Source: a bacterium (GTDB lineage Bacteria; Patescibacteriota; Patescibacteriia; UBA2196). Taken from it: 64,000 nt of DNA. Positions within the stretch are counted from its first letter, which is position 1. Each line of letters starts with the position of its first letter. Under the pieces are notes generated by a model. The model saw only the letters and a list, made by a program, of their open reading frames with translations, did no database searches and was not told where the DNA came from. The position numbers and the translations under genes were made by a program. Location of the stretch: contig DAOOOW010000002.1 of NCBI GenBank assembly GCA_035387885.1, forward strand, positions 7,869 to 71,868. The letters are read 5' to 3'. Of this stretch, positions 5,320 to 57,914 are shown one piece after another.

Positions 5320-6129
5320 ATGTTATATATAGTCGCTACACCAATTGGCAATTTGGAAGACATAACATTGCGTGCGCTTAGAATTTTTAAGAGTGTTGAT
5401 TATATTTTATGTGAAGATACGCGCGTCACCAAAAAACTTTTAGATCATTATGAAATTTATCCTATCAAATCTTTGGTCAAAGACCAAAGTGCCAAGCAAT
5501 TTGACAGGCTAAATAAAAAATTAATTAGTTATCATCAGCATAGTAGTGACAAAAAGATTCAGGAAATTCTTGAATTAATAAAAAATAATAATGTAGCATT
5601 AGTCACTGATGCTGGTACACCAGGTATTTCTGATCCGGGAAATAAATTGATTGCGCGTTTGGTAGAGACGAGGCATTGCCTCGTTTCTTCTAATACCAAC
5701 ATTGTACCTGTCCCTGGCCCCTCGGCTTTAATTACCGCACTTTCTATTTCTGGTTTGCCAACTGATAAATTTATTTTTAAAGGTTTTGTGCCTCATAAAA
5801 AAGGCCGTGAAACTTTTTTGCGTCAGGTTTTAGATTCAGAAGAGACTGTGGTTTTTTATGAATCCTGTCATCGAATTTTAAAAACACTTTCCGCGCTATG
5901 TTATCCGTCTTTTTGTCATTCCCGCGAAAGCGGGAATCCAGAAAAAGATAACTGGATCCCCGATCAAGTCAGGGATGACAAAAAAGAAAAACACCTTGTT
6001 GTCTGTCGTGAACTAACTAAAAAATTTGAAACTATTTATCGTGGCACTGCTAATGAAATTTTAGAACAAATAAAAAAGGACTTCCCGACGGGAAATCCTA
6101 AAGGCGAATTTGTCGTGATTAGTGGTTAA
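5320..6129 (+). CDS. rsmI: 16S rRNA (cytidine1402-2'-O)-methyltransferase RsmI, carrying a 66-bp in-frame palindromic repeat insertion
   Basis: N-terminus LYIVATPIGNLEDITLRALRIFKSVDYILCEDTR. The insertion at 5915-5980 (TGTCATTCCCGCGAAAGCGGGAATCC...GGATCCCCGATCAAGTCAGGGATGACA) encodes CHSRESGNPEKDNWIPDQVRDD. Confidence 0.8.
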   Translation: MLYIVATPIGNLEDITLRALRIFKSVDYILCEDTRVTKKLLDHYEIYPIKSLVKDQSAKQFDRLNKKLISYHQHSSDKKIQEILELIKNNNVALVTDAGTPGISDPGNKLIARLVETRHCLVSSNTNIVPVPGPSALITALSISGLPTDKFIFKGFVPHKKGRETFLRQVLDSEETVVFYESCHRILKTLSALCYPSFCHSRESGNPEKDNWIPDQVRDDKKEKHLVVCRELTKKFETIYRGTANEILEQIKKDFPTGNPKGEFVVISG

Positions 6130-6377: not shown

Positions 6378-7820
6378 ATGTCTAATAAATTTTATCTTAC
6401 CACAACTCTGCCTTATGTCAATGCTGAACCACACATTGGTTTTGCTTTGGAAATTATTCAAGCCGATGTTCTAGCGCGCTGGCACAGATTTTTAGGTCAG
6501 GAAGTTTTTTTTAATACTGGCACAGATGAACATGGTTTGAAAATTTATCGTAAAGCTTTGGCAGAAAATAAAACTCCCCAAGATTATTGCAATGAATACG
6601 CCACCAAATTTGATAATTTAAAAAGTGCTTTAAATTTAAGTTATAATAATTTTATCCGCACTACTGATGAACACCACACCAAGGCGGCCCAGGAGTTTTG
6701 GCAACGTTGCGAGAAAAATGGTGATATCTACAAAAAAAATTATAGCGTAAAATATTGTGTGGGTTGTGAACTAGAAAAAACCGAATCAGAACTGGTTAAT
6801 AACAAATGTCCAATTCATCCAAATTTAGACTTGGAATTAATTGCTGAAGAAAATTATTTTTTTAGTTTTTCCAAATATCAAGATAAACTTTTAGAATTAT
6901 ATAAAAATAACCCAGAGTTTGTTGTGCCTACCCATCGCTTGCATGAAATAAAAAATTTTGTGGAGGGCGGTTTAGAAGATTTTAGTATTTCTCGATTGAA
7001 AGAAAAAATGCCATGGGGCATTTCTGTGCCAGGCGATGAAAACCATGTGATGTATGTTTGGTTTGACGCTTTGGTTAATTATATTTCCTGTCTGGGTTGG
7101 CCAGATGATGAAAAAAAGTTTAAAGAATTTTGGCCAGGAACGCAAGTGGCAGGCAAAGATAATTTACGTCAACAAACTGCCATGTGGCAAGCCATGTTAA
7201 TGTCTGCTGGTTTACCAAATTCCAAACAAATTTTTATTCATGGTTTTATCACTGCTGGTGGAGAAAAAATGAGTAAATCACTTGGCAATGTGGTTAACCC
7301 TTTTGAGTTAGTTGAAAAATATGGCACTGATGCTATACGTTATTATCTTTTAGCAAAACTTCCACCATATGAAGATGGTGATTATACTGAAGAAAAATTT
7401 AAAGAAGCCTATACTGCTGACCTTTGCAACGGCCTTGGCAACCTTGTCTCGCGATTTTCTAATCTAATCGAAAAGAATAATCTTACTTTGCCATCCCGAC
7501 GAAAGTCGGGATCCAGCAATATTGATGGTAATCAATTGTCAAAAACATTTTCCGACAAATTATCTCACTATAAATTCAATGAAGCCCTAGAAGTTCTCTG
7601 GGCCAAACTTCGTGCTTGTGATGAAACAATTACCAAAACAGAACCTTGGAAAATTAAAGATCAAGAAAAACTCAAAGAAATTTTAGAGCCTATTGCAGAG
7701 GATATTTTAAATGTGGCCATTTTGCTCCAACCCTTTATGCCTAGTACGGCTGAAAAAATAATCAAGACTTTTACAGCAGAAAAAATTGTCAAAAGCGAAC
7801 CATTATTTCCAAGAATATAA
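6378..7820 (+). CDS. metG: Methionine--tRNA ligase (short form)
   Basis: LPYVNAEPHIGF (HIGH-type motif) and KMSKSLGN. A 23-bp hairpin repeat (ATCCCGACGAAAGTCGGGAT) lies in-frame at 7492-7514. Confidence 0.9.
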   Translation: MSNKFYLTTTLPYVNAEPHIGFALEIIQADVLARWHRFLGQEVFFNTGTDEHGLKIYRKALAENKTPQDYCNEYATKFDNLKSALNLSYNNFIRTTDEHHTKAAQEFWQRCEKNGDIYKKNYSVKYCVGCELEKTESELVNNKCPIHPNLDLELIAEENYFFSFSKYQDKLLELYKNNPEFVVPTHRLHEIKNFVEGGLEDFSISRLKEKMPWGISVPGDENHVMYVWFDALVNYISCLGWPDDEKKFKEFWPGTQVAGKDNLRQQTAMWQAMLMSAGLPNSKQIFIHGFITAGGEKMSKSLGNVVNPFELVEKYGTDAIRYYLLAKLPPYEDGDYTEEKFKEAYTADLCNGLGNLVSRFSNLIEKNNLTLPSRRKSGSSNIDGNQLSKTFSDKLSHYKFNEALEVLWAKLRACDETITKTEPWKIKDQEKLKEILEPIAEDILNVAILLQPFMPSTAEKIIKTFTAEKIVKSEPLFPRI

Positions 7821-7822
7821 TA

Positions 7823-7895
7823 CGAATTATTACAAATTATTTGCGAATTATATTAATTGAATTTTATTCGCACAATTCGCAAATAATTCGCTAAT
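7823..7895 (+). repeat. AATTCGC-box cluster upstream of the cvpA-like gene
   Basis: TTGCGAATTA...TTCGCACAATTCGCAAATAATTCGCTAATAATTAGCATA. The same boxes recur upstream of hup, rplK, rplA, GT2 57915 and downstream of 59769. Confidence 0.45.
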
Positions 7896-7912
7896 AATTA
7901 GCATAAAAACTT

Positions 7913-9443: not shown

Positions 9444-9471
9444 TTCGCTCCAGTCTCCTGACTGGAGCGGC
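9444..9471 (+). repeat. CGCTCCAGTC-TCCT-GACTGGAGCG hairpin element downstream of tatD
   Basis: Perfect 10-bp stem with no T-run, so it is a repeat rather than a classic terminator. Variants occur at 15927-15951, 25327-25421 and in the 70-bp repeat. Confidence 0.5.
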
Positions 9472-15845: not shown

Positions 15846-15959
15846 TTCTTTAATTGTAAACTCAAGCGACTATTTTAGTTGTTAAGAGTTTGGGGATCCT
15901 TTTTTTAATTTTCTAATCATTTTTTCGCTCCAGTCTTTTGATTGGAGCGTTGGTGTATT

Positions 15960-16958: not shown

Positions 16959-17091
16959 CACGTTTTTATAATTATATTACTATAAAAATAACTAAATTTA
17001 TCAACCATAAACACGAATTTTGTATAAATTGGATTTTAAAACCATAATTCATAATTCATTCCGCCAGTTGGCGGATCATAATTTAAATTTT

Positions 17092-17454
17092 ATGTCAGAA
17101 GTTCAAAAAACAGAAGCAATCGAATTAACAAATCTTAAACCAGGTATGGTGGTTAAGGTTTATGAGAAAATTAAAGATATTGATGCTAAGGGCAAAGAAA
17201 GAACCCGTTCTCAGATTTTTGAGGGCACGGTTTTAGCAGTTAAAAACTCTAAAACTAGTATGGGTTCTTTTGTTGTTAGAAAAATTTCCGAAGGCGTGGG
17301 CGTGGAAAAAATTTATCCTTTGCAATCACCTTTAATTGAAAAGATAATTTTTGTTAAACAGATTAAAGTTAATCGCGCCAAGCTTTATTATTTAAGAAAT
17401 TACAAAAAAAGATTAAAAGAAAAGAAAGTAATTAAAGTTAAAAAAGAAGTTTAA
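17092..17454 (+). CDS. rplS: Ribosomal protein L19
   Basis: MVVKVYEKIKD..RSQIFEGTVLA core. Start set at the internal Met; the upstream part of the track ORF contains a CCGCCAGTTGGCGG palindrome. Confidence 0.85.
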   Translation: MSEVQKTEAIELTNLKPGMVVKVYEKIKDIDAKGKERTRSQIFEGTVLAVKNSKTSMGSFVVRKISEGVGVEKIYPLQSPLIEKIIFVKQIKVNRAKLYYLRNYKKRLKEKKVIKVKKEV

Positions 17455-22213: not shown

Positions 22214-23398
22214 ATGTCTGCTAAAGAAAAAACCCTCTTAGTCACTCTTGATTTTCCCCCTCTGTTTGGTGGCGTGGCTAATTATTATTTTGAACGAGTT
22301 AAGATATTGTCTAAAGAGGAGATATTTGTTTTAATGAATCAAATTACGGATTACAAATTACAGATTACAAATTACGATTTTAAAATTTATTATAAATCCT
22401 TTTTTACCAAATTGCTTTGGCCTCATTGGCTTCCCCTAATTTGGCATATTTATAGAATTGTTAAAAAAGAAAAAATAAATAAAATTTGGGTGGGGCAAGT
22501 TTTACCAGTAGGCACGGCGGTTTGGGGGATATCTCGTCTTTTGTCATTCCAGCGATCCGCCAGCTGGCGGATGAAATCCAGTAATTTTTTTAGTCGAAGA
22601 GATCCTTCGACTTCAGCCTCGCATTGCTCGGCTTCCGTTCAGGATGACAAAATACGTCCTTTGGCGTATTTTGTCACTTGTCATGGCAATGATTTGCTGC
22701 GCGCTAAAAATCAGCCACGAAAATTTAAAATTGCTAAACTTATTTTTCGTGACGCTGAATTTGTTGAAGCTAATACTGAATTTACTAAAAATATTTTAAT
22801 TAATGATTTCCAAATTCCAGCAGAAAAAATTAAAATTGTTTATCCGGTTAATACTTTAAAAAAGGAAATGGTTGACGAAAAAAAAGTTAGTGAGTTGCGT
22901 GAAAAGTATAATCTAATTGGCAAAAAAGTTTTATTAACTGTTGGCCGATTAGTGAAATCCAAAGGCATTGATCAAGTTATTTGTGCCTTGCCAAAAGTTT
23001 TGGAAAAAATACCAGATTTAGTATATTTAATTGTTGGTGATGGACCTGATAAAGAAAGATTAACACAGATTGTTGGCGAATTTGCAGGGACAGGTTACGA
23101 CCTGTCCCTGCCAACCCAAAATAATAAAATAATTTTTATTGGCAGTGTGCTAAACGAAGAATTACCAAATTATTATGCTCTGGCCAATGCTTTTATTTTA
23201 ACTCCGCGAAAGAATTATTTTGGAGATACAGAAAGTTTTGGGATAGTTTATTTAGAAGCCAAAGAATTTGATTTGCCTATTGTTGCTGGCAATGTTGGTG
23301 GAGCTAAAGAAATTGCCAAAGCTTACAATCAAATGCATTTGATTGATTCTGAAAATATAGAAGAAGTGGTAGAAAAAATAATTGCCATAATAAAATAA
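22214..23398 (+). CDS. Glycosyltransferase family 4 (GT-B, retaining) with three in-frame repeat insertions
   Basis: C-terminal GT4 blocks (VGRLVKSKGID..., ESFGIVYLEAKEFDLPIVAGNVGG). Insertions: ATTACAAAT repeat 22352-22380 (ITDYKLQITNY), 108-bp palindromic element 22542-22649, and hairpin TGCAGGGACAGGTTACGACCTGTCCCTGCC at 23084-23112. Confidence 0.7.
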   Translation: MSAKEKTLLVTLDFPPLFGGVANYYFERVKILSKEEIFVLMNQITDYKLQITNYDFKIYYKSFFTKLLWPHWLPLIWHIYRIVKKEKINKIWVGQVLPVGTAVWGISRLLSFQRSASWRMKSSNFFSRRDPSTSASHCSASVQDDKIRPLAYFVTCHGNDLLRAKNQPRKFKIAKLIFRDAEFVEANTEFTKNILINDFQIPAEKIKIVYPVNTLKKEMVDEKKVSELREKYNLIGKKVLLTVGRLVKSKGIDQVICALPKVLEKIPDLVYLIVGDGPDKERLTQIVGEFAGTGYDLSLPTQNNKIIFIGSVLNEELPNYYALANAFILTPRKNYFGDTESFGIVYLEAKEFDLPIVAGNVGGAKEIAKAYNQMHLIDSENIEEVVEKIIAIIK

Positions 23399-33639: not shown

Positions 33640-33790
33640 ATATTTTATCCCCTCCTTTTAAAGGAGGGGCTTAAGCCGAAGGCTAAGGGGGTGGTTATAG
33701 TATTAAGACAAAATTAATTTTTAATACCATGACCGCCCCCTCCGGCTAATCGCCGAGAGACCCCGCCTTTAAAAGGTGGGGATAGGGGAA
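33640..33790 (+). repeat. Composite palindromic repeat cluster (CCCCTCCTTTTAAAGGAGGGG and CCCCGCCTTTAAAAGGTGGGG units)
   Basis: Two related perfect palindromes plus a GC-rich linker. Related CCCCTCCTT(G/T)AAAAGGAGGGG copies at 40975-40998 and 56718-56740 (the latter inside a CDS). Confidence 0.6.
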
Positions 33791-35405: not shown

Positions 35406-35435
35406 AGTCTCCCGTCATCTGACGGGAGATTTTTG
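35406..35435 (+). terminator. Intrinsic terminator after cca
   Basis: GTCTCCCGTCA-TCT-GACGGGAGA followed by TTTTTGG. Confidence 0.7.
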
Positions 35436-35821: not shown

Positions 35822-35850
35822 TCTCCCGTTTACAGACGGGAGAGATAGTT
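35822..35850 (-). terminator. Intrinsic terminator for the 35855..36154 gene (minus strand)
   Basis: Minus-strand ATCTCTCCCGTC-TGTAAA-CGGGAGAT followed by TTTTTTTATTT. Confidence 0.65.
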
Positions 35851-36892: not shown

Positions 36893-38332
36893 ATGATTAA
36901 AGAATTACATCAAAAACTTATTAATAAAGAAATATCCGCAGTGGAACTCACTCGCGATTATTTAGCGCGCGCAGAAGCCAAAAACTCTGAACTTAATGCT
37001 TTTATCACAATAGTTAGTGATTCTGCTTTAAGACAAGCAGTGGCAGTTGATAGAAAAATAAAAAATAATGAAGAAATTTCGTTAATTGCTGGCCTGCCTT
37101 GTAGTATTAAAGATGTCATTATGACAGAGGGTATTAGGACTACAGCTGCATCTAAAATTTTAGAAAATTATATTGCTTCTTATGACGCCACGTCTGTTGG
37201 CAAAATAAAAAATGCTAAGGCTGTAATTTTGGGTAAAAATAATTGCGATGAATTTGCCATGGGCGGCTCTAATGAAAATTCTGGTTTTGGTCCAGTTAAA
37301 AATCCACTTGATTTAGAACGCGTGCCAGGTGGATCTTCTGGTGGCTCTGCAGTAAGTGTGGCTGCGGATTTAGCAGTTTATGCTCTAGGCACAGATACTG
37401 GTGGTTCAGTGCGCCAACCAGCGGCTTTTTGTGGAGTGGTTGGTCTGAAACCAACTTATGGGGCAGTTTCACGTCATGGTTTAATTGCTATGGCTTCATC
37501 ATTAGACCAAATTGGACCATTAACAAAAAATATTGAAGACGCCAAAATTATTTTTGATATAATTAAAGGCAAAGATAAATTTGACTCAACGAGTCAAGAA
37601 TTTCCAATTTCCAACCAGCCTACCGGACGGACAGGTTTCCAATTTCCAATAAATTTTAAAAAATTAAAAATCGGCATTCCTAAAGAATATTTTGTTAAAG
37701 GCATTGACACTGAAGTGGAATCCGCGGTGCGTGAAGTAATAAAAAAAGCAGAAGCATTGGGCGCGGAAATTGTGGAAGTTAGTTTGCCATATACTGAATA
37801 TGCGCTGGCTGTTTATTATATTATCCAACCTGCAGAAGCCAGCGCCAATTTAGCGCGCTTTGATGGCATTCGTTATGGCAAGCGAGCTGAGGCGACTGAA
37901 AATTTAATTGAAGTTTATAAAAAAACTCGCGCGGAATTTTTAGGTGAAGAAGTTAAAAGAAGAATAATGCTCGGCACTTACACTTTATCGGCTGGATATT
38001 TTGACGCTTATTATAAAAAAGCCAACGCAGTTAGAAAATTAATTAAGCAAGATTTTACTAATGTGTTTGAAAGCGTTGATTTATTAATTACTCCAACCAC
38101 ACCTACCTCTGCTTTTAAATTAGGTGAAAAAACTAGCGATCCATTAACAATGTATTTGGAAGATATTTTTACAGTACCGATTAATTTAGCTGGTTTACCG
38201 GCCATGTCCATGCCAGCCGGCCAAACAAAATCCGGTTTGCCCATTGGGGTACAATTAATTGCCCCATGGTTTGGGGAAGATGTTTTGTTTGAGGTGGGGG
38301 AGGAGTTAGAAAGAGTAATCCGTAATATGTAA
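36893..38332 (+). CDS. gatA: Glutamyl-tRNA(Gln)/Asp-tRNA(Asn) amidotransferase subunit A
   Basis: Amidase signature GGSSGGSAVSVAADLAVYALGTDTGGSVRQPAAFCGVVGLKPTYG. Confidence 0.92.
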   Translation: MIKELHQKLINKEISAVELTRDYLARAEAKNSELNAFITIVSDSALRQAVAVDRKIKNNEEISLIAGLPCSIKDVIMTEGIRTTAASKILENYIASYDATSVGKIKNAKAVILGKNNCDEFAMGGSNENSGFGPVKNPLDLERVPGGSSGGSAVSVAADLAVYALGTDTGGSVRQPAAFCGVVGLKPTYGAVSRHGLIAMASSLDQIGPLTKNIEDAKIIFDIIKGKDKFDSTSQEFPISNQPTGRTGFQFPINFKKLKIGIPKEYFVKGIDTEVESAVREVIKKAEALGAEIVEVSLPYTEYALAVYYIIQPAEASANLARFDGIRYGKRAEATENLIEVYKKTRAEFLGEEVKRRIMLGTYTLSAGYFDAYYKKANAVRKLIKQDFTNVFESVDLLITPTTPTSAFKLGEKTSDPLTMYLEDIFTVPINLAGLPAMSMPAGQTKSGLPIGVQLIAPWFGEDVLFEVGEELERVIRNM

Positions 38333-38468
38333 TCCGTAATCTGTAAAAGGAATAAATTGATTTAAAAATTTTATTACCAATTACTAATTACCAATTACAA
38401 ATTACTTTTTGTTGTTTTATTGCCAAATTTTATATTTATGATAGAATAATTCTAGTTTTTTATTGGGC

Positions 38469-40794: not shown

Positions 40795-41008
40795 AAAAAC
40801 AGGGTTTAAATTAAACCCAATAAAACGCAAAAATTCGCTGAAATGGGCGGATTTTTGCTTTTAGATAATGTTTGCGGTTTTTATAGATATTTGGTAAAAT
40901 AAAAGGGTAAAAAGTAAAAGTTTAACTCAGCGCCTATTGGCGATTTATTAACCACCCCGCCCGACTTCGTCGAGGCGCCCCTCCTTGAAAAGGAGGGGAC
41001 AGCAAGTC

Positions 41009-41583: not shown

Positions 41584-42651
41584 ATGAAAATTCTACTCCA
41601 AAATTTAAAACAAGAAATTACGGAAAAAATAAAACTTGTCAAAAACGAAGCTGATTTGGAACATTTGCGTTTAGAATATTTAAGTCGCAAAGGCAAATTT
41701 ACCGAAAGTTTAAAAGCCCTTAAAGATGTAGCCGTAGCTGAACGACCAGTTATTGGCAAATTGGCTAATGAAGTTAAACAAGAAGTAGAACATTTATTTG
41801 CCCAAACTCAAAATGCTTTTAGTGGAGAAAATAATTTTAAGCAGTCGGGAGGAAAAAATCCGCCAACTGGCGGAGAAAAAATTTATGATGCTACTTTGCC
41901 TGGTCTTAAAAAACCAATGGGCACTTATCATCCGATTACTCAAATTATCAAAGATTTAAATCAAGCTTTTCAGTCTTTAAATTTTGAAATTTATGAAGAT
42001 AATGAAATTACTACTGAAGAGCAAGCTTTTGATAATTTAAATTTTCCTCCTAATCATCCGGCTAGAGAAAGCATGGATACTTATTGGATAAAAGGCTCGG
42101 AAGATAGAAGTGGTCAAGAAAAACTTTGTTTGCGCCCTCATCTAACTGGCAATAGCGTCAACTATATGAAAATTCATCAGCCGCCATTTCGTTTTGTTTA
42201 TCCGGGCCGAGTTTTTCGCAGCGAAGCCACCGACGCTGGCCATGAAAGATGTTTTTATCAATACGAAGCATTAATTGTGGATGAAAATATTTCTTTTTCT
42301 GCCGGCAAAGTTTTAATTCAAACTATTTTAAATAAAGTTTTTGGTAAAGAAATTCCGGTGCGCATGCGGGCTGGGTTTTTCCCGTTTGTAGAACCAGGTT
42401 TTGAAATTGATATGCAATGTCAGGTTTGCGGGGGAGTTGGTTGCTCTGTTTGCAAACACAATGGTTGGTTGGAAGTAATGCCTGGTGGAGCGCCTCACCC
42501 TAATGTTCTAAAAGCTGGTGGCCTTGATCCAAAAAAATGGCAGGGCTTTTATATTAATGTCGGCCTTGATCGCTTGGTGATGATGAAATATGGCATTGAT
42601 GATGTGCGCCTGATGCATTTTGGTGATTTAAGATTTCTAAGACAATTTTAA
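41584..42651 (+). CDS. pheS: Phenylalanine--tRNA ligase alpha subunit
   Basis: Class II motifs FRSEATDAGHERCFYQYEAL and GFFPFVEPGFEIDMQC. Cys-rich CQVCGGVGCSVCKH insert. Confidence 0.9.
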   Translation: MKILLQNLKQEITEKIKLVKNEADLEHLRLEYLSRKGKFTESLKALKDVAVAERPVIGKLANEVKQEVEHLFAQTQNAFSGENNFKQSGGKNPPTGGEKIYDATLPGLKKPMGTYHPITQIIKDLNQAFQSLNFEIYEDNEITTEEQAFDNLNFPPNHPARESMDTYWIKGSEDRSGQEKLCLRPHLTGNSVNYMKIHQPPFRFVYPGRVFRSEATDAGHERCFYQYEALIVDENISFSAGKVLIQTILNKVFGKEIPVRMRAGFFPFVEPGFEIDMQCQVCGGVGCSVCKHNGWLEVMPGGAPHPNVLKAGGLDPKKWQGFYINVGLDRLVMMKYGIDDVRLMHFGDLRFLRQF

Positions 42652-42654
42652 TTT

Positions 42655-42795
42655 TCAAAGTTTATCCCGAGCGATTAGTTGAGGGATCTCTATTTAGTAA
42701 TCTGTAATAAGTAATATGTAATAAGTAATAAAAACACTTTGTCATCCCGGCTCAAATTGCCACTGGTAATTTTTCGCTGATTCGGGATCCAGAAA
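42655..42795 (+). repeat. Composite intergenic repeat (GTTTATCCCGAGCG...GAGGGATCTC; AT-rich GTAATNNGTAATA tandem; TGTCATCCCGG...TTCGGGATCC)
   Basis: Three of the recurring repeat families are juxtaposed in 140 bp. Confidence 0.6.
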
Positions 42796-42806
42796 TACAA
42801 ATAATT

Positions 42807-43214: not shown

Positions 43215-43300
43215 AATAATTTTTTCTGGATCATGACTTTCGTCAGGATGACAACTCTTTTTTCCATAATACATTATTCATAATACATAATTCACACCTT

Positions 43301-44380: not shown

Positions 44381-44444
44381 TTTCTATTTGTCATCCTGAA
44401 TTTGTTTGCCCCGCATTTGCAGCGGATTCAGGATCCAAAAAATT

Positions 44445-45209
44445 ATGAACCAATTAGAAAAAATAAAAAATACGCCAATAAAAACACCAAAGTGGATTGT
44501 GGATTTAAAATATTTTGACGATCGTTTTAAAGTAAACAATAAAATTAAAAAAAGAAAATTAAATAAAAAACACGGACTATTCGCGGAAAAAATTGTCGAT
44601 TATAGAAAATATGGTTTAAAAGGAGAGAGTTATTATTGGCAATTTAGACAGGAAAAACAATTTAAAAAAATAAAAAATTTATTACCAAAAGAATTTTATT
44701 TACGGAAAAGTATTGTTGAAGATTTGCAAAAAGTTAATAATTTTTTAAAAAAATATAACTTATCTCTGTATGTTAAAAGCGGTTATCGCAATGAAGAAGT
44801 CCAGTTAGCTGCTATTGATTATTTTTCTGCTAAGGGTGATGAAAAACAAAAAATGCTTTTTGCTCAACCCAAAGAAAGAAGTGCTAATCATCCCTATCCT
44901 CATTCCACTGGTGCCACTTTTGATTTAACATTATATGACTTAAAGAGAAAACAATTTATAAATTTAAGATTTAGAAAAGACATTACCGTATTTGGCATTG
45001 AGAGAGTTAAAAAAATAACAACTACGGAAAAGAAAATTAGAGCCTACCGTCGGCTATTATATAATATCCTTTGCACACCAGTTATTTTAGAAAAAGAAAA
45101 TTTATTTACCGCCCATCCATTTGAATATTGGCATTTTTCCCGTGGTGATCAATTGGCTAGATTTTGGTCAGGTTCGGACAAGATGGCTTATTACGGCGAA
45201 GCAAAATAA
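44445..45209 (+). CDS. D-Ala-D-Ala dipeptidase-like M15 peptidase (VanX/DdpX-like)
   Basis: SANHPYPHSTGATFDLTLYD (S-x-H-x-x-G-x-A-x-D) and EYWHFS (E-x-x-H) motifs. The start is internal to track ORF 44406.., whose 5' end is a repeat. Confidence 0.6.
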   Translation: MNQLEKIKNTPIKTPKWIVDLKYFDDRFKVNNKIKKRKLNKKHGLFAEKIVDYRKYGLKGESYYWQFRQEKQFKKIKNLLPKEFYLRKSIVEDLQKVNNFLKKYNLSLYVKSGYRNEEVQLAAIDYFSAKGDEKQKMLFAQPKERSANHPYPHSTGATFDLTLYDLKRKQFINLRFRKDITVFGIERVKKITTTEKKIRAYRRLLYNILCTPVILEKENLFTAHPFEYWHFSRGDQLARFWSGSDKMAYYGEAK

Positions 45210-46141: not shown

Positions 46142-48700
46142 ATGTTATTATCTTTAAACTGGCTTAAACAATATGTTAATTTGCCCAAAAATTTAACGGC
46201 TAAAAAATTAGCTCATGATTTAACCATGTCCACTGTGGAAGTGGAAAGCATTGAAAATCAAGCAGAAATGTTTGATAAAATTGTGGTTGGTAAAATAGTT
46301 GAAGTAAAAAATCATCCGAATGCTGACAAATTAAAATTGGTTAGCGTTGATGTTGGTAAAAACGCCCCCAAAGGGGCTAAGAAAATTGATGTTGTGTGTG
46401 GTGGTATTAATTTGTGCGAAGGCATGTTGGTAGCTGTAGCCTTGCCTGGGAGCAAAGTCCGCTGGCACGGAGAAGGGGATTTGGTGGAATTACAAGAGAC
46501 AGAAATTCGTGGTCAAAAATCTTTTGGTATGATTTGTTCAAGTAATGAAATTGGTTTAGAAAGTATGTTTTCTTGTGGTGAAAAAGAAATTTTGGATTTG
46601 GGCATTGTGGTTCAAGACAGGGCCTTGAACCAACACCTAAAACCGGGGCAAAATTTAGCTGAAGCTTTGGGTTTAGATGACACCATTATTGAATTGGATA
46701 ATAAATCCATTACGCACCGGCCTGATTTATGGAATCATTATGGAGTTGCCAGAGAACTAGCTGTAATATATAAAACTCCTTTGGAGAAATTCCAAATTAC
46801 AAATAACAAATTCCAAATAAATTCCAAATTACAAAATTCAAAATTTAAAAACAATAACTTATCAATTAAAATTCAAGATAAAAAACTTTGTCCACGCTAT
46901 ATTGGTTGCTTAATTAAAAATGTTAAAGTTGGTCCATCGCCAGAATGGTTAGTTAAAAGTTTAGAAGCAGTTGGTTTACGTTCCACAAATAATATTGTGG
47001 ATATTACTAATTATGTGATGTTGGATGTGGGTGAACCAATGCATGCGTTTGATAAAGCAAAGCTTTATCAAACGCAAATCCGAAATCAGAAATCCCTGCC
47101 TCGCCGGCAGGCAGGCGAAATCCGAAAAAATGAAAAAATAGAAATTAATATTAGAACTGCAAAAAATGGTGAAAAAATAAAAACTTTTAATGGGGTGGAA
47201 AGAAAATTGGATGAAAACATACTTGTGATTGCCGACAGTGAAAAACCAATTGCTTTGGCTGGAGTCATGGGCGGACTTGATTCTTCGGTTGATGACAAGA
47301 CAACAGAAATTATTTTAGAAGCGGCCAATTTTGATGCCTTTAATGTGCGTAAAACCACGCAAAAATTAAATATCAGAACCGAAGCATCTAATCGTTTTGA
47401 AAAAAAATTAGCAGGAGAATTTGCTATACTTGGTATGCAAAAAGCTTTGCAATTGATTAAAGAAATAATTCCTGAAGCAGAAATGGGTTCAATGGTTGAT
47501 ATAAATTATGCTAAAAACCCAGATATCAAAATTAAAATTGAACATGAGTTTATTGAGAAAAGAATTGGCCAGGAAATCAGTTCGAAAGAAATAAAAAATA
47601 TTTTGGAAAGATTGGGTTTTGTCGTAGAGACGCAAGATATTGCGTCTCAAAACACGGGATACAAAATAACCGTTCCTTATTGGCGCTCAACTGGCGACAT
47701 TGATTGCCCAGAAGATATTGTGGAAGAAGTTGCCAGAATTTATGGTTATAATAATTTAAAAGATCAACCACTGGGAGTTAAACTGCATAAGCAAATTTTG
47801 CAACCAGAATTTGAATTATGTCAAAAAATTAAAGATTTTTTGGTTTTAAACTCTGGTTTAAACGAGATTTTTAACTATCCTTGGACTGAAGAAATTTACT
47901 TGAAAAAACTGGGGGAAAATGGTAAAATGATTATTGTAGCCAATCCGCCTTCCGAGGCTAATAAATGGCTCCAAAACAGCTTAATTCCCAATTTAGTTAA
48001 AAACATTGAAGATAATTTACGCTATTTTGATGAGTTTGGTATTTTTGAAATGGCTAATGTTTATTTACCCAGTAACCAAGAGTCAAAAATGTTGGCTATT
48101 GGTTTTGTTAGTCCAAAAAACACGGATGCATTTTTATCAGTCAAAGGAATTATAGAAAATATTTTTAATATTTTACAGATTACAGATTATAGATTACAGA
48201 TTACAAAAACATCAGAAAGTTATTTAAATAGTGAAAAAAGTTTAGCTGTGTGTGTAGGTGATAAACAACTTGGTTGGCTTGGAGAACTTAAAAAAGAAAT
48301 TTACCAAAAGTTTAATTTTAAAAATAGAAATATTTGTTTGACGGAAATAAATTTGACTGAGTTGATTGCTGTGGCTAAAAATGTGTCTGTTAAAAAATAT
48401 CAACCCTTGCCACAATTTCCTAGTGTAGTTCGCGATTTGGCCTTTGAGTTGGGTTGGTCAGTAAATTGGGAAAGCGTTAATAAAGAGATCCTGAAACTAG
48501 TTCAGGATGACAACATTAAAAAAGAAACAGAATTTTTATCTGAATTTGATCTTGGGAACAAAAAATCTTTAGCTTTTAGAATAATTTATCAAGCCCATAG
48601 AACCTTAACAGATAAAGAAGTTGATAATATCCAAGAAAAAATTATCAAATTAATTACAGAAAAATTTGCTGGCAAGTTAAGAGTAAATTTGAAAAAATAA
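46142..48700 (+). CDS. pheT: Phenylalanine--tRNA ligase beta subunit
   Basis: N-terminal tRNA-binding domain KIVVGKIVEVKNHPNADKLKLVSVDVG plus B3/4 and B5 domains. Three in-frame repeat insertions: 46793-46862, 47076-47128, 48172-48206. Confidence 0.9.
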   Translation: MLLSLNWLKQYVNLPKNLTAKKLAHDLTMSTVEVESIENQAEMFDKIVVGKIVEVKNHPNADKLKLVSVDVGKNAPKGAKKIDVVCGGINLCEGMLVAVALPGSKVRWHGEGDLVELQETEIRGQKSFGMICSSNEIGLESMFSCGEKEILDLGIVVQDRALNQHLKPGQNLAEALGLDDTIIELDNKSITHRPDLWNHYGVARELAVIYKTPLEKFQITNNKFQINSKLQNSKFKNNNLSIKIQDKKLCPRYIGCLIKNVKVGPSPEWLVKSLEAVGLRSTNNIVDITNYVMLDVGEPMHAFDKAKLYQTQIRNQKSLPRRQAGEIRKNEKIEINIRTAKNGEKIKTFNGVERKLDENILVIADSEKPIALAGVMGGLDSSVDDKTTEIILEAANFDAFNVRKTTQKLNIRTEASNRFEKKLAGEFAILGMQKALQLIKEIIPEAEMGSMVDINYAKNPDIKIKIEHEFIEKRIGQEISSKEIKNILERLGFVVETQDIASQNTGYKITVPYWRSTGDIDCPEDIVEEVARIYGYNNLKDQPLGVKLHKQILQPEFELCQKIKDFLVLNSGLNEIFNYPWTEEIYLKKLGENGKMIIVANPPSEANKWLQNSLIPNLVKNIEDNLRYFDEFGIFEMANVYLPSNQESKMLAIGFVSPKNTDAFLSVKGIIENIFNILQITDYRLQITKTSESYLNSEKSLAVCVGDKQLGWLGELKKEIYQKFNFKNRNICLTEINLTELIAVAKNVSVKKYQPLPQFPSVVRDLAFELGWSVNWESVNKEILKLVQDDNIKKETEFLSEFDLGNKKSLAFRIIYQAHRTLTDKEVDNIQEKIIKLITEKFAGKLRVNLKK

Positions 48701-52501: not shown

Positions 52502-52594
52502 CTAATGCGAATTAATAGCGAATTAATAGCGAATGGTGCGAATGAAAAAAATTTGTAAAATTCGTAAAAAATTTGTAATAATTCGGAATTTTAT
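52502..52594 (+). repeat. GCGAATTAATAGCGAAT / AATTTGTAATAATTCG box cluster upstream of rplK
   Basis: Tandem GCGAATTAATAGCG units, then AAATTTGTAAAATTCGTAAAAAATTTGTAATAATTCGG, ending 9 nt before the rplK ATG. Confidence 0.5.
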
Positions 52595-53017
52595 ATGGCA
52601 AAAAACATTAAAACAATTATTAAATTACAAATTAAAGCTGGAGCAGCTAATCCTGCGCCACCTGTTGGTCCAGCTTTGGGTCAGCATGGCTTAAATATTT
52701 CAGAATTTTGTTCTAAATTTAATGAGGCGACCAAAGATAAAATGGGCGATGTTATCCCAGTAGAAATTACAGTTTATGAAGATAGAACTTATGATTTTAA
52801 ATTGAAAACGCCACCAGCCGCGGAATTAATTAAAAAAGCTGCCAAGATTGAAAAAGGTTCTGGTAAGCCCAATTCAGAAAAAGTTGGCAAAATTACTAAA
52901 GCTCAAGTTAGAGAAATTGCTGAAAAGAAAATGGTAGATTTAAACGCGGGTAACTTGGAAGCAGGTATGAAAATTATTGAAGGCACCGCCAGACAAATGG
53001 GCATAACTGTTGAATAA
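52595..53017 (+). CDS. rplK: Ribosomal protein L11
   Basis: [26 protein letters not shown]. Full L11. Confidence 0.95.
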
Positions 53018-53122
53018 ATTTTTAATTTTAAATTTTAAATTTTAAAATAATTTTCAATTTTAAATTTACAATTAATGTATTCTGTCATTCCAATAAAAGC
53101 GGGAATCCAGAAAATTAACATT

Positions 53123-53554
53123 ATGGACCAAGAACAAATTTCATCAACACAAACTCCAGTACAAAATACTGTTTCAAATAATTTTGATGAACAAAAGTTT
53201 GCTAAAAAGGTCAAAACAGCAGGTATTTCGTCAATTATTTATGGTATTTTATTAATTGTGTTGGTAGTATATTATGCTTTAGCAGCTAATAAAATTAGTT
53301 TAGGTACTATATTAATGTTACTCTTTAGTGCAGTTTTTATTGTTTTAGGCATAAAAATTAAAAAAGCTTTATTAAATAGTCAGCGTAATTGGTTGGCTGT
53401 TATTATAGGTTTTAGTATTATAATTATGATTTTAAATTTTGTTTTAAGTGGCAGTATTGGTGGTTTATTAAATTTAGTTTTTTTAGCTATTTTTATTGAT
53501 GGGTATTCTGCTATAAACAGAAAAGAACAAAAATCATTTAACATCACAAAATAA
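53123..53554 (+). CDS. Hypothetical membrane protein inserted between rplK and rplA
   Basis: Four-TM ORF with an internal Met start. The upstream part of track ORF 53075.. overlaps a TGTCATTCC...GGGAATCC repeat. Confidence 0.4.
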   Translation: MDQEQISSTQTPVQNTVSNNFDEQKFAKKVKTAGISSIIYGILLIVLVVYYALAANKISLGTILMLLFSAVFIVLGIKIKKALLNSQRNWLAVIIGFSIIIMILNFVLSGSIGGLLNLVFLAIFIDGYSAINRKEQKSFNITK

Positions 53555-53673
53555 TTTTTTATAATATAAATTAACTTGTGGGAGATTCGCCAGTCCCGAA
53601 TCGCTACAACCACAAAATTATTACATTTTTTATTCGCATAATTCGCACGAAATTTGTAATAATTCGTAATAAA

Positions 53674-54348: not shown

Positions 54349-54506
54349 ATTTTTAGTTTATCCAGAGCGAGCGAAGTTATACAATAGTATAACGAAGTCC
54401 GAGGGATCCCGCGGAAAAATGATCATTATGATTTTATAATAAAAACACCTTTTAGATGAGGTGTTTTTAAGTTGCTAAAAAACCATAATTTAGGTAAACT
54501 TAAGGT

Positions 54507-55499
54507 ATGAAATTGTCTATTATTATTGTTTCTTGGAATACCCGCGAATTGGTTTTAAAATGTTTAAAATCAATTTTTTCTTATTTAAAAAACATTTCTT
54601 TTGATGTTTATTTAGTTGACAACAATTCCACTGACAGCACAGTTGAAGAAGTTGAAAAATATAAAGCAGAAAATAATTTAGAAAATTTGCATATTATTGC
54701 TAATAAAAAGAATGTGGGTTTTGCTCGGGCTAATAATCAAGCGATAACTCTCTGCTGTCATTCTTATGCCAGTCAGGATCTAGAAATAAAAGAAGGAAAT
54801 TCCTGGATCCCCAATCCTGCCTCATTGGCAGATAAGCAAGTCGGGGATGACAAAAATGGCTATTTTTTATTGCTCAACCCAGACACTGAACTTATTGATG
54901 ATTCTTTAATTAAAATGATAGAATTTGCTAAAACAAACCCGGATATTGTTATTGTTGGACCCAAACTTTTAAATATAGATTTAAGTTTACAAAAATCTTG
55001 TCGCCAGTTTCCCAAACTTTTAGATCAGCTTTTAATTCAATTAAAATTTTATAATTTTTGGCCTGAAAAATTTAAAGCTACGCGCGAATATTTTATGTTA
55101 GATTTTGATTATGATAGTAGTGGGGAAGTGGAGCAAGTTATGGGGGCAGCCATGCTTATTAAAAAAAGTGTTTTTGATAAAATTGGTTTATTAGATGAAA
55201 ATTTCTGGGCGATTTTTGAAGAGGTAGATTTTTGTCAACGAGCTAAAGATGTTGGTTATAAAATTTATTATTTTGCGAACACTAAAATTGTTCATCATAA
55301 AGAGCAAAGTTTTGGGCAGTGGAAAAAACTGCGTAAGCAAATAAATTTTAATCATTCGCTATATTATTATTTTAAAAAACACAAACCCATTTGGCAGTTA
55401 TTTATTCTCTGGCTGGTCCAGCCAATAAATTTATTTTTAACTTTAGTGGATATGTTAATTGGCGTTAGACATTTTTTTGGTAAAAGTAAGGATTTGTAA
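54507..55499 (+). CDS. Glycosyltransferase family 2 (rhamnosyltransferase-like) with a repeat insertion of about 97 bp
   Basis: LSIIIVSWNTRELVLKCLKSI ... VDNNSTDST ... DxD region. The TGTCATTC...GGGGATGACAA element at 54756-54852 encodes HSYASQDLEIKEGNSWIPNPASLADKQVGDDK. Confidence 0.75.
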   Translation: MKLSIIIVSWNTRELVLKCLKSIFSYLKNISFDVYLVDNNSTDSTVEEVEKYKAENNLENLHIIANKKNVGFARANNQAITLCCHSYASQDLEIKEGNSWIPNPASLADKQVGDDKNGYFLLLNPDTELIDDSLIKMIEFAKTNPDIVIVGPKLLNIDLSLQKSCRQFPKLLDQLLIQLKFYNFWPEKFKATREYFMLDFDYDSSGEVEQVMGAAMLIKKSVFDKIGLLDENFWAIFEEVDFCQRAKDVGYKIYYFANTKIVHHKEQSFGQWKKLRKQINFNHSLYYYFKKHKPIWQLFILWLVQPINLFLTLVDMLIGVRHFFGKSKDL

Positions 55500-55537: not shown

Positions 55538-55685
55538 TACTGTCATTCCCGACCGCCTTCCCGATAGCAATCGGGAGGCGGATCGGGAATCCCGTTGATT
55601 ACAGAAAAAAGTTTGTGTTTATATTCACGAGATCCCCGCTCTGAGAGCCTAATCGGCAGTGCCGGCGGGGATGACAACTAGGGGG
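55538..55685 (+). repeat. Composite palindromic repeat (TGTCATTCCCGACCGCCTTCCCGATAGCAATCGGGAGGCGGATCGGGAATCCC, then GAGATCCCCGCTCTGAGAGCCTAATCGGCAGTGCCGGCGGGGATGACAA)
   Basis: The second module is near-identical to 41530-41578. Confidence 0.65.
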
Positions 55686-55768: not shown

Positions 55769-56070
55769 CACTTTTATTTTTTTTGGGAATGCAAAAATGT
55801 TTCTTTGGATATTTGGGAAAAAGAAAGAACTGTTGCGTTATTGGGTTTTGTATCCCCAGATAAATTTCTTATAATCATCAGTTCCACTTCTTTTAGAGGA
55901 AAAAATTCTCTATTTGTTTGAAATGTGTAATTGCCGAAAGTTAAATTATTATTATTTGAATAAGTGGCAAGAAAAGAACAAAACCAATAGGTTTCCATAA
56001 ATAATTTCTCCAGTATTTTAATTTTTTGTGAATTTATGTACCTAAAATTTAGCATATTATTATTATTATT

Positions 56071-57834
56071 ATGTCAAGTTTTATTAGTAAAAAATATTTT
56101 TTCATTACATTTTTTCTGCTAATATTAGCAGAAATTTTTTCATATTTAAGTTGGCAAAATCCGCTAATAAATACAATTTGTTTTAGTCTTATAATTTTAA
56201 TCACCTTAATTATATCTTGGCGCAAATTAGAATATGGTTTTTATATTTTATTTGCCGAATTGTTTATTGGCTCATTTGGCTATCTCTTTTCTTTAACAAT
56301 TAATGGCTTTCGCGTATCTTTGCGCATGGGAATCTTTGTGGTGGTGATGGCAACTTGGCTATATCGCTATTTAACGCAATTGACAACGCAATTTAACGCC
56401 AACAAAGATTGTCATTCCGACCGAAGGTCGACAAGTGAAACATTGTCGAACGTAGTGGAGGAATCTAAAAATGAGATCCCTCGACTCCGCTTCGCTCCGC
56501 TCGGGATGACAAAAGAAAAAGCGAGGATAACAAAAAAAACAATGGTCACATTTGCTGTTGTAATTATTTGGGCTTTTATCTGGGGCTTAATTCGTGGCAA
56601 TGGATTTAGTAATGTTTTTTTAGATTTTAATAATTGGCTATACTTTTTAATTATTTTGCCAGTATTTGGTGTTCTAAAAAAATATAACCACCCTGGCTCG
56701 TCCAAATTGCCAGAAGGACTCGCCACCCCTCCTTTAAAAGGAGGGGACAGTAAAAATGTTTTTTTTAAAAATATTATTTCAATTCTTTCTGCGGCCGTAA
56801 TAATTATTTTTTTAAAGACATTTTTTTTATTTTATCTTTTTACCCATGGTTTTGCTGACATTGGTTCGGAAATTTATAGATGGGTGCGCGACACGCGCAT
56901 TGGTGAAATTACTCTAATGGGTGGGGGGCTTTATAGAATATTTATTCAATCGCAAATCTATAGTTTGTTGTTATTTTGTATTTTGTTTTTTAAGGGTTGT
57001 CATCCCGAGCGGAGCGAAGCGGAGTCGAGGGATCCCGTAGATAAAAATAAAAAAGAAAACAACCAAAAATTACCTATTACTTATTACCTATTACTTATTA
57101 CCTCTCTTACCACCATTATTCTTAGCCTCTCCAGAAGTTTCTGGCTTGGCTTAACTGTTAGTTTAATTATTTATTTTTTTTACACATTACACATTATTCA
57201 TTACACATTACTTTTCTTTTTTAAATCCTTTTCAAAACTTCTTATAGTTGTTATTATGAGTTTGTGTCTAATTGTGGCCACACTCTATCTGCCGCCAAAA
57301 AAGGATTATGATTTGTCTGTTTTAATTTCTAAGCGAGGCATTTCCAGTAGCGAGCCAGCCAGTTCTTCTAGAATAAGTCAATTAAAACCTTTGCTTTTGG
57401 CCATTAGCCAGCATCCTATAATTGGTTCTGGCTTTGGCACCACTGTAACTTATAAATCCACTGATCCCCGCGCCATTCAAGAATCATTAAACAATTCTGG
57501 TCTTATTAAGACTTACGCTTTTGAGTGGGGATATTTGGACATGATGTTAAAATTTGGTGCACTGGGATTATTTGCTTACCTATATTTAATTTATTTAATA
57601 ATGAAAAGATTGTTGAATTTCCAATTTCCAATTTCCAATTTCCAAACAAATTGCAAATTTAAAATTCAAAATCAAAAACTTGTTAACCATAATTCATTAT
57701 TCATTATTCATTATTCACTTTTCTTTGCCCTGCTTGCCTTGCTCATTGTTAACATTTTTAGCCCCTATTTAAATCATCCCTTGGGCATTGGCTTCCTCAT
57801 TTTAATGCTAATAGTTGCGAATGAGGGCGAATGA
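56071..57834 (+). CDS. O-antigen ligase/polymerase-family (Wzy_C-like) polytopic membrane protein, heavily interrupted in-frame by repeat elements
   Basis: More than ten TM segments. At least six repeat insertions remain in frame: 56409-56516, 56718-56740, 56999-57041, about 57071-57104, 57607-57662, 57690-57722. Confidence 0.5.
   Translation: MSSFISKKYFFITFFLLILAEIFSYLSWQNPLINTICFSLIILITLIISWRKLEYGFYILFAELFIGSFGYLFSLTINGFRVSLRMGIFVVVMATWLYRYLTQLTTQFNANKDCHSDRRSTSETLSNVVEESKNEIPRLRFAPLGMTKEKARITKKTMVTFAVVIIWAFIWGLIRGNGFSNVFLDFNNWLYFLIILPVFGVLKKYNHPGSSKLPEGLATPPLKGGDSKNVFFKNIISILSAAVIIIFLKTFFLFYLFTHGFADIGSEIYRWVRDTRIGEITLMGGGLYRIFIQSQIYSLLLFCILFFKGCHPERSEAESRDPVDKNKKENNQKLPITYYLLLITSLTTIILSLSRSFWLGLTVSLIIYFFYTLHIIHYTLLFFFKSFSKLLIVVIMSLCLIVATLYLPPKKDYDLSVLISKRGISSSEPASSSRISQLKPLLLAISQHPIIGSGFGTTVTYKSTDPRAIQESLNNSGLIKTYAFEWGYLDMMLKFGALGLFAYLYLIYLIMKRLLNFQFPISNFQTNCKFKIQNQKLVNHNSLFIIHYSLFFALLALLIVNIFSPYLNHPLGIGFLILMLIVANEGE
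56470..56516 (+). repeat. 37-bp repeat GATCCCTCGACTCCGCTTCGCTCCGCTCGGGATGACA inside a CDS; exact inverted copy at 56999..57041
   Basis: 56479-56515 is the exact reverse complement of 57002-57038; the two are separated by about 490 bp of coding sequence. Confidence 0.75.
56999..57041 (+). repeat. Inverted copy of the 37-bp repeat (TGTCATCCCGAGCGGAGCGAAGCGGAGTCGAGGGATC)
   Basis: See 56470..56516. Confidence 0.75.
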
Positions 57835-57914
57835 GTACGAATATTTATTCGCAAAATTCGCTTTAAATTTGCAATAATTCGCAGGAAACATTTTTAACTA
57901 TATAAAATATCTGT

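Follow-up and report, generated by a model that had tools for sequence, protein, structure and literature searches.

Why should a single membrane-protein gene hold two exact inverted copies of one short sequence, together with several other repeats, and still be read from end to end? The question is raised by the gene at positions 56071-57834 of the 64-kb stretch of DNA that was analysed (hereafter the window), which belongs to a Candidatus Kuenenbacteria-like genome of the Patescibacteria, also called the Candidate Phyla Radiation (CPR). The first-pass annotation saw in the pair the possible ends of a composite nonautonomous element enclosing an invertible segment or, failing that, the mark of an insertion hotspot. 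Here we report that, in all likelihood, five loops of a functional Wzy_C gene have been filled in frame by dispersed genomic repeats, the inverted pair being copies of a repetitive extragenic palindromic (REP) unit. The repeats are of three classes, namely TGTC-tagged REP units, a CCCCTCC/GGAGGGG hairpin and heptanucleotide tandem arrays.

An intact Wzy_C gene carrying repeats

The 587-codon open reading frame (ORF) proposed earlier is real, and its product matches Pfam Wzy_C (PF04932) over residues 341-504 with 42.6 bits against a cut-off of 31.7 (6.9e-11). A search with the protein, which is identical to HPA25319.1 (P0121), retrieved 585 homologues, the majority annotated as PF04932, and its relatives belong to Candidatus Kuenenbacteria and other Patescibacteria. 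Across 118 homologues, which range from 459 to 641 residues, the window protein ranks fifth longest and keeps all 32 of the 32 family-invariant columns. Its AlphaFold2 model (predicted local distance difference test score, pLDDT, 87.2; predicted template modelling score, pTM, 0.90) has 14 helices and a conserved 80-residue loop, 407-486, with the invariant residues R422, R434, G452, G454, D465 and R467; the catalytic core of the enzyme is conserved. Foldseek found no significant match for the model in the PDB (top hit FtsW, E = 0.027) and a profile search of PDB sequences gave no match, so that the protein is assigned on structural grounds to neither WaaL nor Wzy. A functional glycan ligase or polymerase of the Wzy_C type is the best explanation that the sequence offers for the gene, which is flanked by three GT2 glycosyltransferase genes.

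The gene and the repeats within it, grouped by the five sites A to E at which they lie, are as follows.

56071-57834, plus strand: intact gene for a Wzy_C-family (O-antigen ligase/polymerase-like) polytopic membrane protein, 587 residues
56410-56465, plus strand: site A, left unit of a doublet, a TGTC-tagged REP unit of long form with a 52-nt interior and a nested hairpin; encodes CHSDRRSTSETLSNVVEES
56475-56511, minus strand: site A, right unit of the doublet, the "canonical" unit TGTCATCCCGAGCGGAGCGAAGCGGAGTCGAGGGATC and arm 1 of the inverted repeat (56475-56512); encodes IPRLRFAPLGMT
56726-56746, strand unassigned: site B, hairpin CCCCTCC-N7-GGAGGGG, CCCCTCCTTTAAAAGGAGGGG; encodes PPLKGG
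56998-57034, plus strand: site C, solo canonical TGTC unit and arm 2 of the inverted repeat (56997-57034); encodes CHPERSEAESRD
57069-57103, plus strand: site C, heptamer array ATTACCT/ATTACTT, 5 copies; encodes LPITYYLL
57180-57211, plus strand: site D, heptamer array TTACACA, 4.6 copies, in the turn between helices 10 and 11; encodes LHIIHYTL
57616-57645, plus strand: site E, heptamer array AATTTCC, 4.3 copies; encodes NFQFPISNFQ
57688-57717, plus strand: site E, heptamer array CATTATT, 4.3 copies; encodes SLFIIHYS

Together the repeat blocks make up 287 of the 1764 nt of the ORF (16%). The whole site-A doublet, in which TGTCATTCCGACCGAAGGTCG begins at 56410, covers 102 nt or 34 codons (56410-56511) and folds far better than shuffled sequence (z = -4.07), as does the site-B hairpin (z = -4.5). 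The latter occurs in three window copies (33649, 40978 and 56726) where none is expected, and represents a second dispersed family. Translation of the repeat segments gives the predicted junction peptides NEIPRLRFAPLGMTK and GCHPERSEAESRDPVDK.

The repeats listed by the first-pass annotation all exist, with coordinates displaced by 1-9 nt and a fourth heptamer array overlooked; its inverted pair is likewise genuine and 100% complementary, once shifted by 4 nt and extended from 37 to 38 nt. Its description of these repeats as in-frame insertions holds at sites A, B, C and E, where alignment of the window protein with 117 homologues shows a net insertion, but hardly at site D, which lies about one residue over the median.

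The inverted arms and the TGTC family

The two arms (56475-56512 and 56997-57034) are 38 nt long, fully complementary and 484 nt apart, and an inverted pair of this kind was matched in none of 100 shuffles. Their identity starts one base before the tag and stops one base after the stem, the flanks differing at once, and it thus spans exactly one repeat unit (T, TGTC, stem-loop, C). Because identity is limited to one unit in this way, the pair represents two unit copies rather than the termini of something larger.

The arms belong to a dispersed family, found by searching the window for their end motif and setting unit boundaries manually. (An automatic finder that required at least 6 perfect outer pairs missed half of the units and was replaced.) The window holds 20 units, about one per 3 kb, and every one carries the TGTC tag and a stem that begins with AT. 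With corrected boundaries, the stem closes with AT in 19 of the 20, and the tail reads CCA in about 10 and mostly CCC, CTC or CTA in the others. Units are 24-56 nt long with a variable interior of 20-52 nt. Eight short ones (e.g., 5914, 5956, 48488 and 2366) fit a geometry of stem 8-9 and loop 4-5, and 12 with long interiors of 31-52 nt do not. Ten units stand alone and ten form five inverted doublets of 67-136 nt with the tags outward, ending in inverted copies of the roughly 11-nt TGTCATYCCGA:

5914/5956: tag-outward doublet
22542/22603: tag-outward doublet
54756/54807 (54756-54852, strand unassigned): in-frame doublet in the neighbouring GT2 gene, residues 84-116, CHSYASQDLE...KQVGDDK
55541/55632 (55541-55676; units 55541-55590 on the plus and 55632-55676 on the minus strand): intergenic doublet just upstream of the Wzy_C gene, z = -5.7
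56410/56475: the site-A doublet of the Wzy_C gene

Most units, and all doublets but the one in the GT2 gene (z = -0.33), fold considerably better than shuffled sequence, at z values between -3.5 and -5.7. An Rfam scan of the whole window returned 9 tRNAs and no RNA family covering the repeats. No consistent direct repeat adjoins the doublets, which are bordered by T-rich sequence at one end and A-rich sequence at the opposite end; a target-site duplication would be hard to recognise in such surroundings and among orthologues this diverged.

These observations do not support the proposal that a composite element has the pair as its terminal inverted repeats. The arms are single units of the dispersed family, arm 1 is already paired with its own doublet partner at 56410-56465, and the 36-mer of the arms occurs exactly in 117 unrelated metagenome contigs. 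We therefore reject a composite transposon at this locus.

Insertions in alternating loops

Syntenic orthologues share the gene order L1-(YkuD)-GT2-Wzy_C-GT2-GT2-DUF3048-L25-ThrRS and have repeats of the same classes at the five corresponding sites, in sequences unrelated to one another. Sites A and C hold TGTC doublets, site B holds C-rich/G-rich hairpins, and sites C, D and E hold heptamer arrays with differing units. The site-B hairpin stands at the same position in P0002, appears as a C7/G7 variant in P0003 and is missing from P0004; site C has a full TGTC doublet in place of the solo unit of the window, with ATTACTT/ATTACTC arrays where the window has its own; and site D has CATTATT or ATTACCC arrays, or none. 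Since orthologues have a full doublet at site C, the solo unit there may be a doublet whose right half has decayed and whose left unit has been overwritten.

The repeats map to loops of the AlphaFold2 model that vary in length among homologues. Over the 118 homologues the standard deviation of loop length is 11.1 residues at A, 7.6 at B, 11.8 at C, 4.4 at D and 10.8 at E, and 0-2.1 residues in the loops that alternate with them, which carry nearly all loop-borne invariant residues. Blocks of low pLDDT (residues 111-150, 201-230, 311-340 and 511-540) coincide with sites A, B, C and E, and the model predicts short helices inside sites A (124-134) and C (314-320). Helix parity puts all five sites across the membrane from the conserved loop 407-486. 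The insertions, then, lie in length-variable loops on one membrane face. Homology to O-antigen ligases would place the conserved loop outside the cell and hence the insertion loops probably in the cytoplasm. The repeats provide a natural map of permissive Wzy_C loops, in which, between helices 4 and 13, every other loop is taken. The earlier suggestion that the gene is simply a hotspot is borne out to this extent, the five alternating loops being permissive in all orthologues.

More distant relatives have, between L1 and the first GT2 gene, a YkuD/FG-GAP gene of about 470 codons (L001 3165-4571, L002 3111-4529, L003 1474-2889). It is absent from the window, where the corresponding stretch is 54349-54506, and from the near-identical assemblies.

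Repeats in other genes of the window

Tolerance of in-frame repeats extends across the genome and is not particular to the Wzy_C gene, as the following genes of the window illustrate.

5320-6129: RsmI-like methylase gene, in-frame repeats at 5914-5980
6378-7820: MetRS gene, in-frame repeat at 7491-7514
17020-17454: L19 gene, in-frame repeat at 17060-17075
22214-23398: GT1 gene, in-frame repeats at 22340-22649
41584-42651: PheS gene, in-frame repeat at 41859-41874
46142-48700: PheT gene, two heptamer arrays and one unit at 46787-46851, 48173-48205 and 48488-48512

These repeats comprise TGTC units, small palindromes and heptamer arrays. The load of the Wzy_C gene is the heaviest, and the first-pass annotation was right to call it notable; in kind it is ordinary, one instance of something seen genome-wide. 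A practical consequence concerns annotation, as peptides of the form CHPERSE..., ...FAPLGMT/..DDK, PPLKGG and ITNYxLQ in CPR proteins are repeat-derived.

Recurrence of units in other genomes

A scan with a pattern derived from the window consensus, TGTCATCCYGA-N4-34-TCRGGATCCAG, matched at least 119 loci in many CPR lineages, Sphingomonas, Gammaproteobacteria, Armatimonadota, Nitrospirota, Bacteroidota and Campylobacterota, with identical units of 28-29 nt common to different phyla. The Y and R positions of the outer stem are complementary in 129 of the 130 matches of the genome scan, and the Sphingomonas units found in this way have a stem of 8 and a loop of 4, in keeping with the geometry published for the CGTC-tagged REP superfamily. 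The exact 36-nt canonical unit was found in 117 metagenome contigs (L124-L240) with GC contents of 35-71%, mostly 55-65%. The tag in front of its 124 exact metagenomic copies is TGTC in the majority of cases and CGTC in 16; TGCGGTT commonly comes next after the unit, and some copies are paired in homodimer doublets across a spacer of 44 nt (e.g., L141 658-773).

The heterodimer doublet of site A is found again in frame in a GT1-like ORF of contig L151 (9738-9797; 35% GC, from the sample of one orthologue), where the left unit is a short form without about 28 nt held by the window copy at 56410. The unit at 22542 (22542-22577) contains an independent palindrome, TCCGCCAGCTGGCGGA, that also stands alone at 17060 and 41859, and two units of L013 (3986-4039 and 4697-4750) consist of a 29-nt cosmopolitan unit plus 25 nt. 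From these three comparisons the long interiors look like hairpins nested in short units. Doublets are met again as entire elements elsewhere, in different genes and different genomes. Two cosmopolitan units were absent from the viral contigs searched, which gives no hint of phage carriage.

Weighing the explanations

Our preferred explanation, insertion of dispersed repeats into permissive loops, may be pictured as follows. Units and doublets would spread as non-autonomous DNA, by hairpin or single-strand transposition or by conversion between units through their shared conserved ends. Selection would purge copies that break the frame or hit constrained segments, and the survivors would be in-frame copies in permissive, probably cytoplasmic, loops, an outcome like that of Rickettsia palindromic elements. 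The peptides that they add, about 90-130 residues, would most likely be neutral passengers.

Several points weigh against this account. The canonical unit is a weak hairpin (dG -2.2 kcal/mol, z = +1.7) and as such departs from the stem 8-9 and loop 4-5 geometry of REPs; its arms combine a 5-bp outer stem with a 23-nt weakly paired interior and end in the tails CTC and CCC. Both window copies of this unit lie in the Wzy_C gene, for which random placement among 20 units gives a chance of about 3/190, and their company in one gene suggests a local copy or conversion event. Close relatives furnished no filled and empty pair for any site, and the 50 of 61 window ORFs that were scanned, within 64 kb, contain no transposase or recombinase domain. 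The cytoplasmic assignment depends on helix parity and O-antigen ligase homology, and the neutrality of the inserted peptides is an assumption.

The exact 38-nt inverted repeat, its arms 484 nt apart, would also suit an invertible switch, in which RecA-type or site-specific recombination between the arms flips the core segment and phase-varies the glycan gene. Genes for surface-glycan synthesis are classic targets of phase variation, and inversion in silico yields a clean OFF state; the 484 nt encode conserved core helices with invariant residues, and in the inverted frame a stop at residue 156 removes the conserved helices, so that OFF is the only alternative state available. We nevertheless consider such a switch highly improbable, as the arms are ordinary members of the REP family whose 36-mer recurs in the 117 other contigs, and as orthologues hold different, non-matching units at both sites, so that the inverted pair is not conserved. 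The normal junction reads GCTCGGGATGACAA joined to AAGAAAAAG and the inverted one GCTCGGGATGACAA joined to CCCTTAAAAAAC, and the inverted-junction 32-mer is absent from public collections of genome contigs and metagenome contigs. Four near-identical assemblies drawn from separate samples (the window, GCA_964498445.1, JGI 3300009782 and JGI 3300010355), compared over about 7 kb, have the same orientation and identical REP units and heptamer arrays throughout, with the limit that these are consensus assemblies in which rare variants or a rare subpopulation could go unseen. Neither orthologue neighbourhoods nor the 50 scanned window ORFs contain a recombinase, invertase or transposase gene. Inversion of the intervening segment, as envisaged by the first-pass annotation, thus finds no support in the assemblies and collections examined.

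Slippage within the heptamer arrays is another way in which expression might be switched, each slip shifting the frame to give stochastic ON/OFF states. The ORF does contain four arrays of 4.3-5 heptamers, their units differ between orthologues at the same sites, which implies rapid turnover, and one near-identical population has a frameshifted allele. In that allele (P0122/L242, 4616 region, from JGI 3300009782) the protein is truncated to 566 residues and lacks its two C-terminal helices together with the invariant PYLNHPLG motif. The cause is the loss of one nucleotide at 57686, immediately ahead of the CATTATT array and outside it, so we reject a heptamer slip as the reason why P0122 is 21 residues shorter; the deletion could be a true null allele or an assembly error. 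Otherwise the four assemblies differ only by a few single-nucleotide polymorphisms and by two small changes in L241, a single-base insertion upstream of the gene at about 55679 and the loss of one TAT repeat before the start codon (a 3-nt deletion, 56054-56056). Copy number is constant in all four arrays across the four assemblies, all arrays are short and two of the four are imperfect (84-85% matches at period 7), and similar arrays lie in essential genes (PheT) and in intergenic DNA, where switching would be senseless. A contingency locus is therefore very unlikely.

Might the loop extensions instead have been co-opted on their presumed cytoplasmic face, for instance for docking of glycosyltransferases or for regulation? 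Insertions at A, C and E are retained in most close orthologues, and 83-102 of the 118 homologues exceed the minimal loop length at these sites by at least 8 residues; every insertion is on one face, and short helices are predicted within A and C. This explanation we regard as unlikely, in that orthologues have unrelated sequences at any one site and only the repeat class in common, the shortest homologues (459-480 residues) are entirely without insertions, pLDDT is low at sites A, B, C and E, and identical elements occur in unrelated genes. It is exceedingly improbable that the repeats have piled up in a decaying pseudogene free of selection, as a load of 16% and the truncated allele in one population might hint. 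The 587-codon frame is uninterrupted and preserved by every insertion, the 32 invariant residues are all present, the AlphaFold2 core is confident, syntenic orthologues are intact with similar loads, and three of the four populations carry a full-length allele.

We also entertain a bolder, rather doubtful idea, that units, doublets and adjoining heptamer arrays are products of a single mobilisation or copying mechanism that is active now and shared by many phyla of bacteria. It is prompted by the identical 28-36-nt units at GC contents of 35-71%, the lack of a RAYT gene in the window and the acceptance of nested hairpins by unit loops; if true, this mechanism would be a major source of new loop sequence in CPR membrane and housekeeping proteins.

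Other repeats in the window

Heptamer arrays often stand within about 10-30 nt of a TGTC unit or doublet, on its tag side (42696-42749, 43226-43294 and 53015-53093 in the window; sites C and E in L002 and L003), which suggests that the two are linked mechanistically or by position. At 38315-38405, between an amidase (GatA-like) gene and a tRNA cluster, opposed arrays of GTAATCC/GTAATAT and ATTACCA/ATTACAA make up an extended, imperfect palindrome.

Three solo TGTC units (42740-42806, 44389-44447 and 53083-53125) lie just before ORFs of 135 codons or more, with 10-18 nt between unit end and start codon (sequence ...GGATCCAGAAAATTATG). The 3' stem arm holds the only purine-rich, Shine-Dalgarno-like stretch there, and these units may shape the structure of the 5' untranslated region or translation initiation. 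In front of the Wzy_C gene itself a (TAT)6 run (56055-56072) leads straight into the ATG.

Intergenic arrays of 10-11-nt units built around CGAAT/TTCGCA/TACGAA (e.g., TAATAGCGAAT, AATTCGCAAAT and GCGAATGAGG) lie at 7821-7903, 52503-52585, 57817-57890 and approximately 53600-53670, upstream of several genes and in one case directly after the Wzy_C stop codon. Other small, GC-rich intergenic palindromes come in pairs (9446-9469 and 15926-15949; 35409-35428 and 35823-35842; 33649-33669 and 40978-40998) and belong to the families CGCTCCAGTCTYYTGAYTGGAGCG, CTCCCGT..ACGGGAG and CCCCTCC..GGAGGGG; those of them that lead into runs of T may be terminators.

Comparison with known repeat systems

A surface-polysaccharide gene that contains a segment bounded by inverted repeats, and tandem arrays with a unit length not divisible by three, recalls invertible switches and contingency loci, from which the locus differs in having no invertase, no alternative orientation, no copy-number variation (four populations) and repeats that are not gene-specific. 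Cyanobacterial short tandemly repeated repetitive (STRR) sequences are dispersed short tandem arrays with a 7-nt period. They have been used for fingerprinting (PMC5088731), and the period of 7 nt is all that they have in common with the window arrays, which consist of other units (ATTACNN, CATTATT, AATTTCC), belong to an AT-rich host and are often translated in frame.

The REPIN/RAYT system offers a closer likeness, in that doublets of inverted REP units form a larger hairpin and are dispersed, mostly intergenic and non-autonomous. Its units have a GTAG tag and are served by a RAYT (Y1 HUH) transposase, whereas ours carry TGTC, and the 50 window ORFs scanned yielded no Y1_Tnp or other transposase domain.

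The window units are most like the CGTC-tagged REP superfamily, which takes in dRS3 of Neisseria and RPE-4 and RPE-6 of Rickettsia conorii (Di Nocera, De Gregorio & Rocco 2013, PMC3733652). In that superfamily the tag is unpaired and often TGTC, with CCTC as a further variant, stems start A-T/T-A, the tail fits CCA, short forms have a stem of 8-10 and a loop of 3-5, and some unit types are common to several species; inverted dimers, often heterodimers, have spacers of 20-100 bp, copies occur in frame within genes, sometimes two per ORF, and a dedicated transposase is not known (PMC3733652). The window units share the unpaired tag, the AT stem start, the occurrence as solos and inverted (hetero)dimers, the in-frame copies and the recurrence of some unit types in several hosts; about half of them have the CCA tail, and eight the short form. 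They differ in the long interiors of 12 of 20 units, apparently nested hairpins, in their density of about one per 3 kb, in the 5-bp outer stem and non-CCA tail of the canonical unit, and in their host, the Patescibacteria/CPR being a phylum outside the description consulted. CGTC REPs appear only in the reference list of a 2018 survey of HUH endonucleases, and a literature search for REPs or repeats in Patescibacteria or Kuenenbacteria returned nothing relevant.

In-frame insertion of REPs and of Rickettsia palindromic elements (RPEs) is already known (PMC3733652; PMC10969869), and what deserves attention here is the use of alternate loops, the company of heptamer arrays and the identity of unit sequences across phyla. 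Like the window repeats, RPEs are small palindromes of a reduced genome that lie in frame in unrelated and essential genes and are tolerated there (PMC10969869; PMC3733652). RPE-1 is about 100-150 bp long and encodes a conserved peptide, whereas our units of 24-56 nt and doublets of 67-136 nt encode highly variable ones, and the likeness is best taken as a functional analogy, in-frame insertion with the protein fold preserved. Our observations thus add the Patescibacteria, another lineage of very small genomes, to the hosts in which, as in Rickettsia, palindromic repeats are translated within genes, and fit the view that weak selection or missing repair lets such elements persist.

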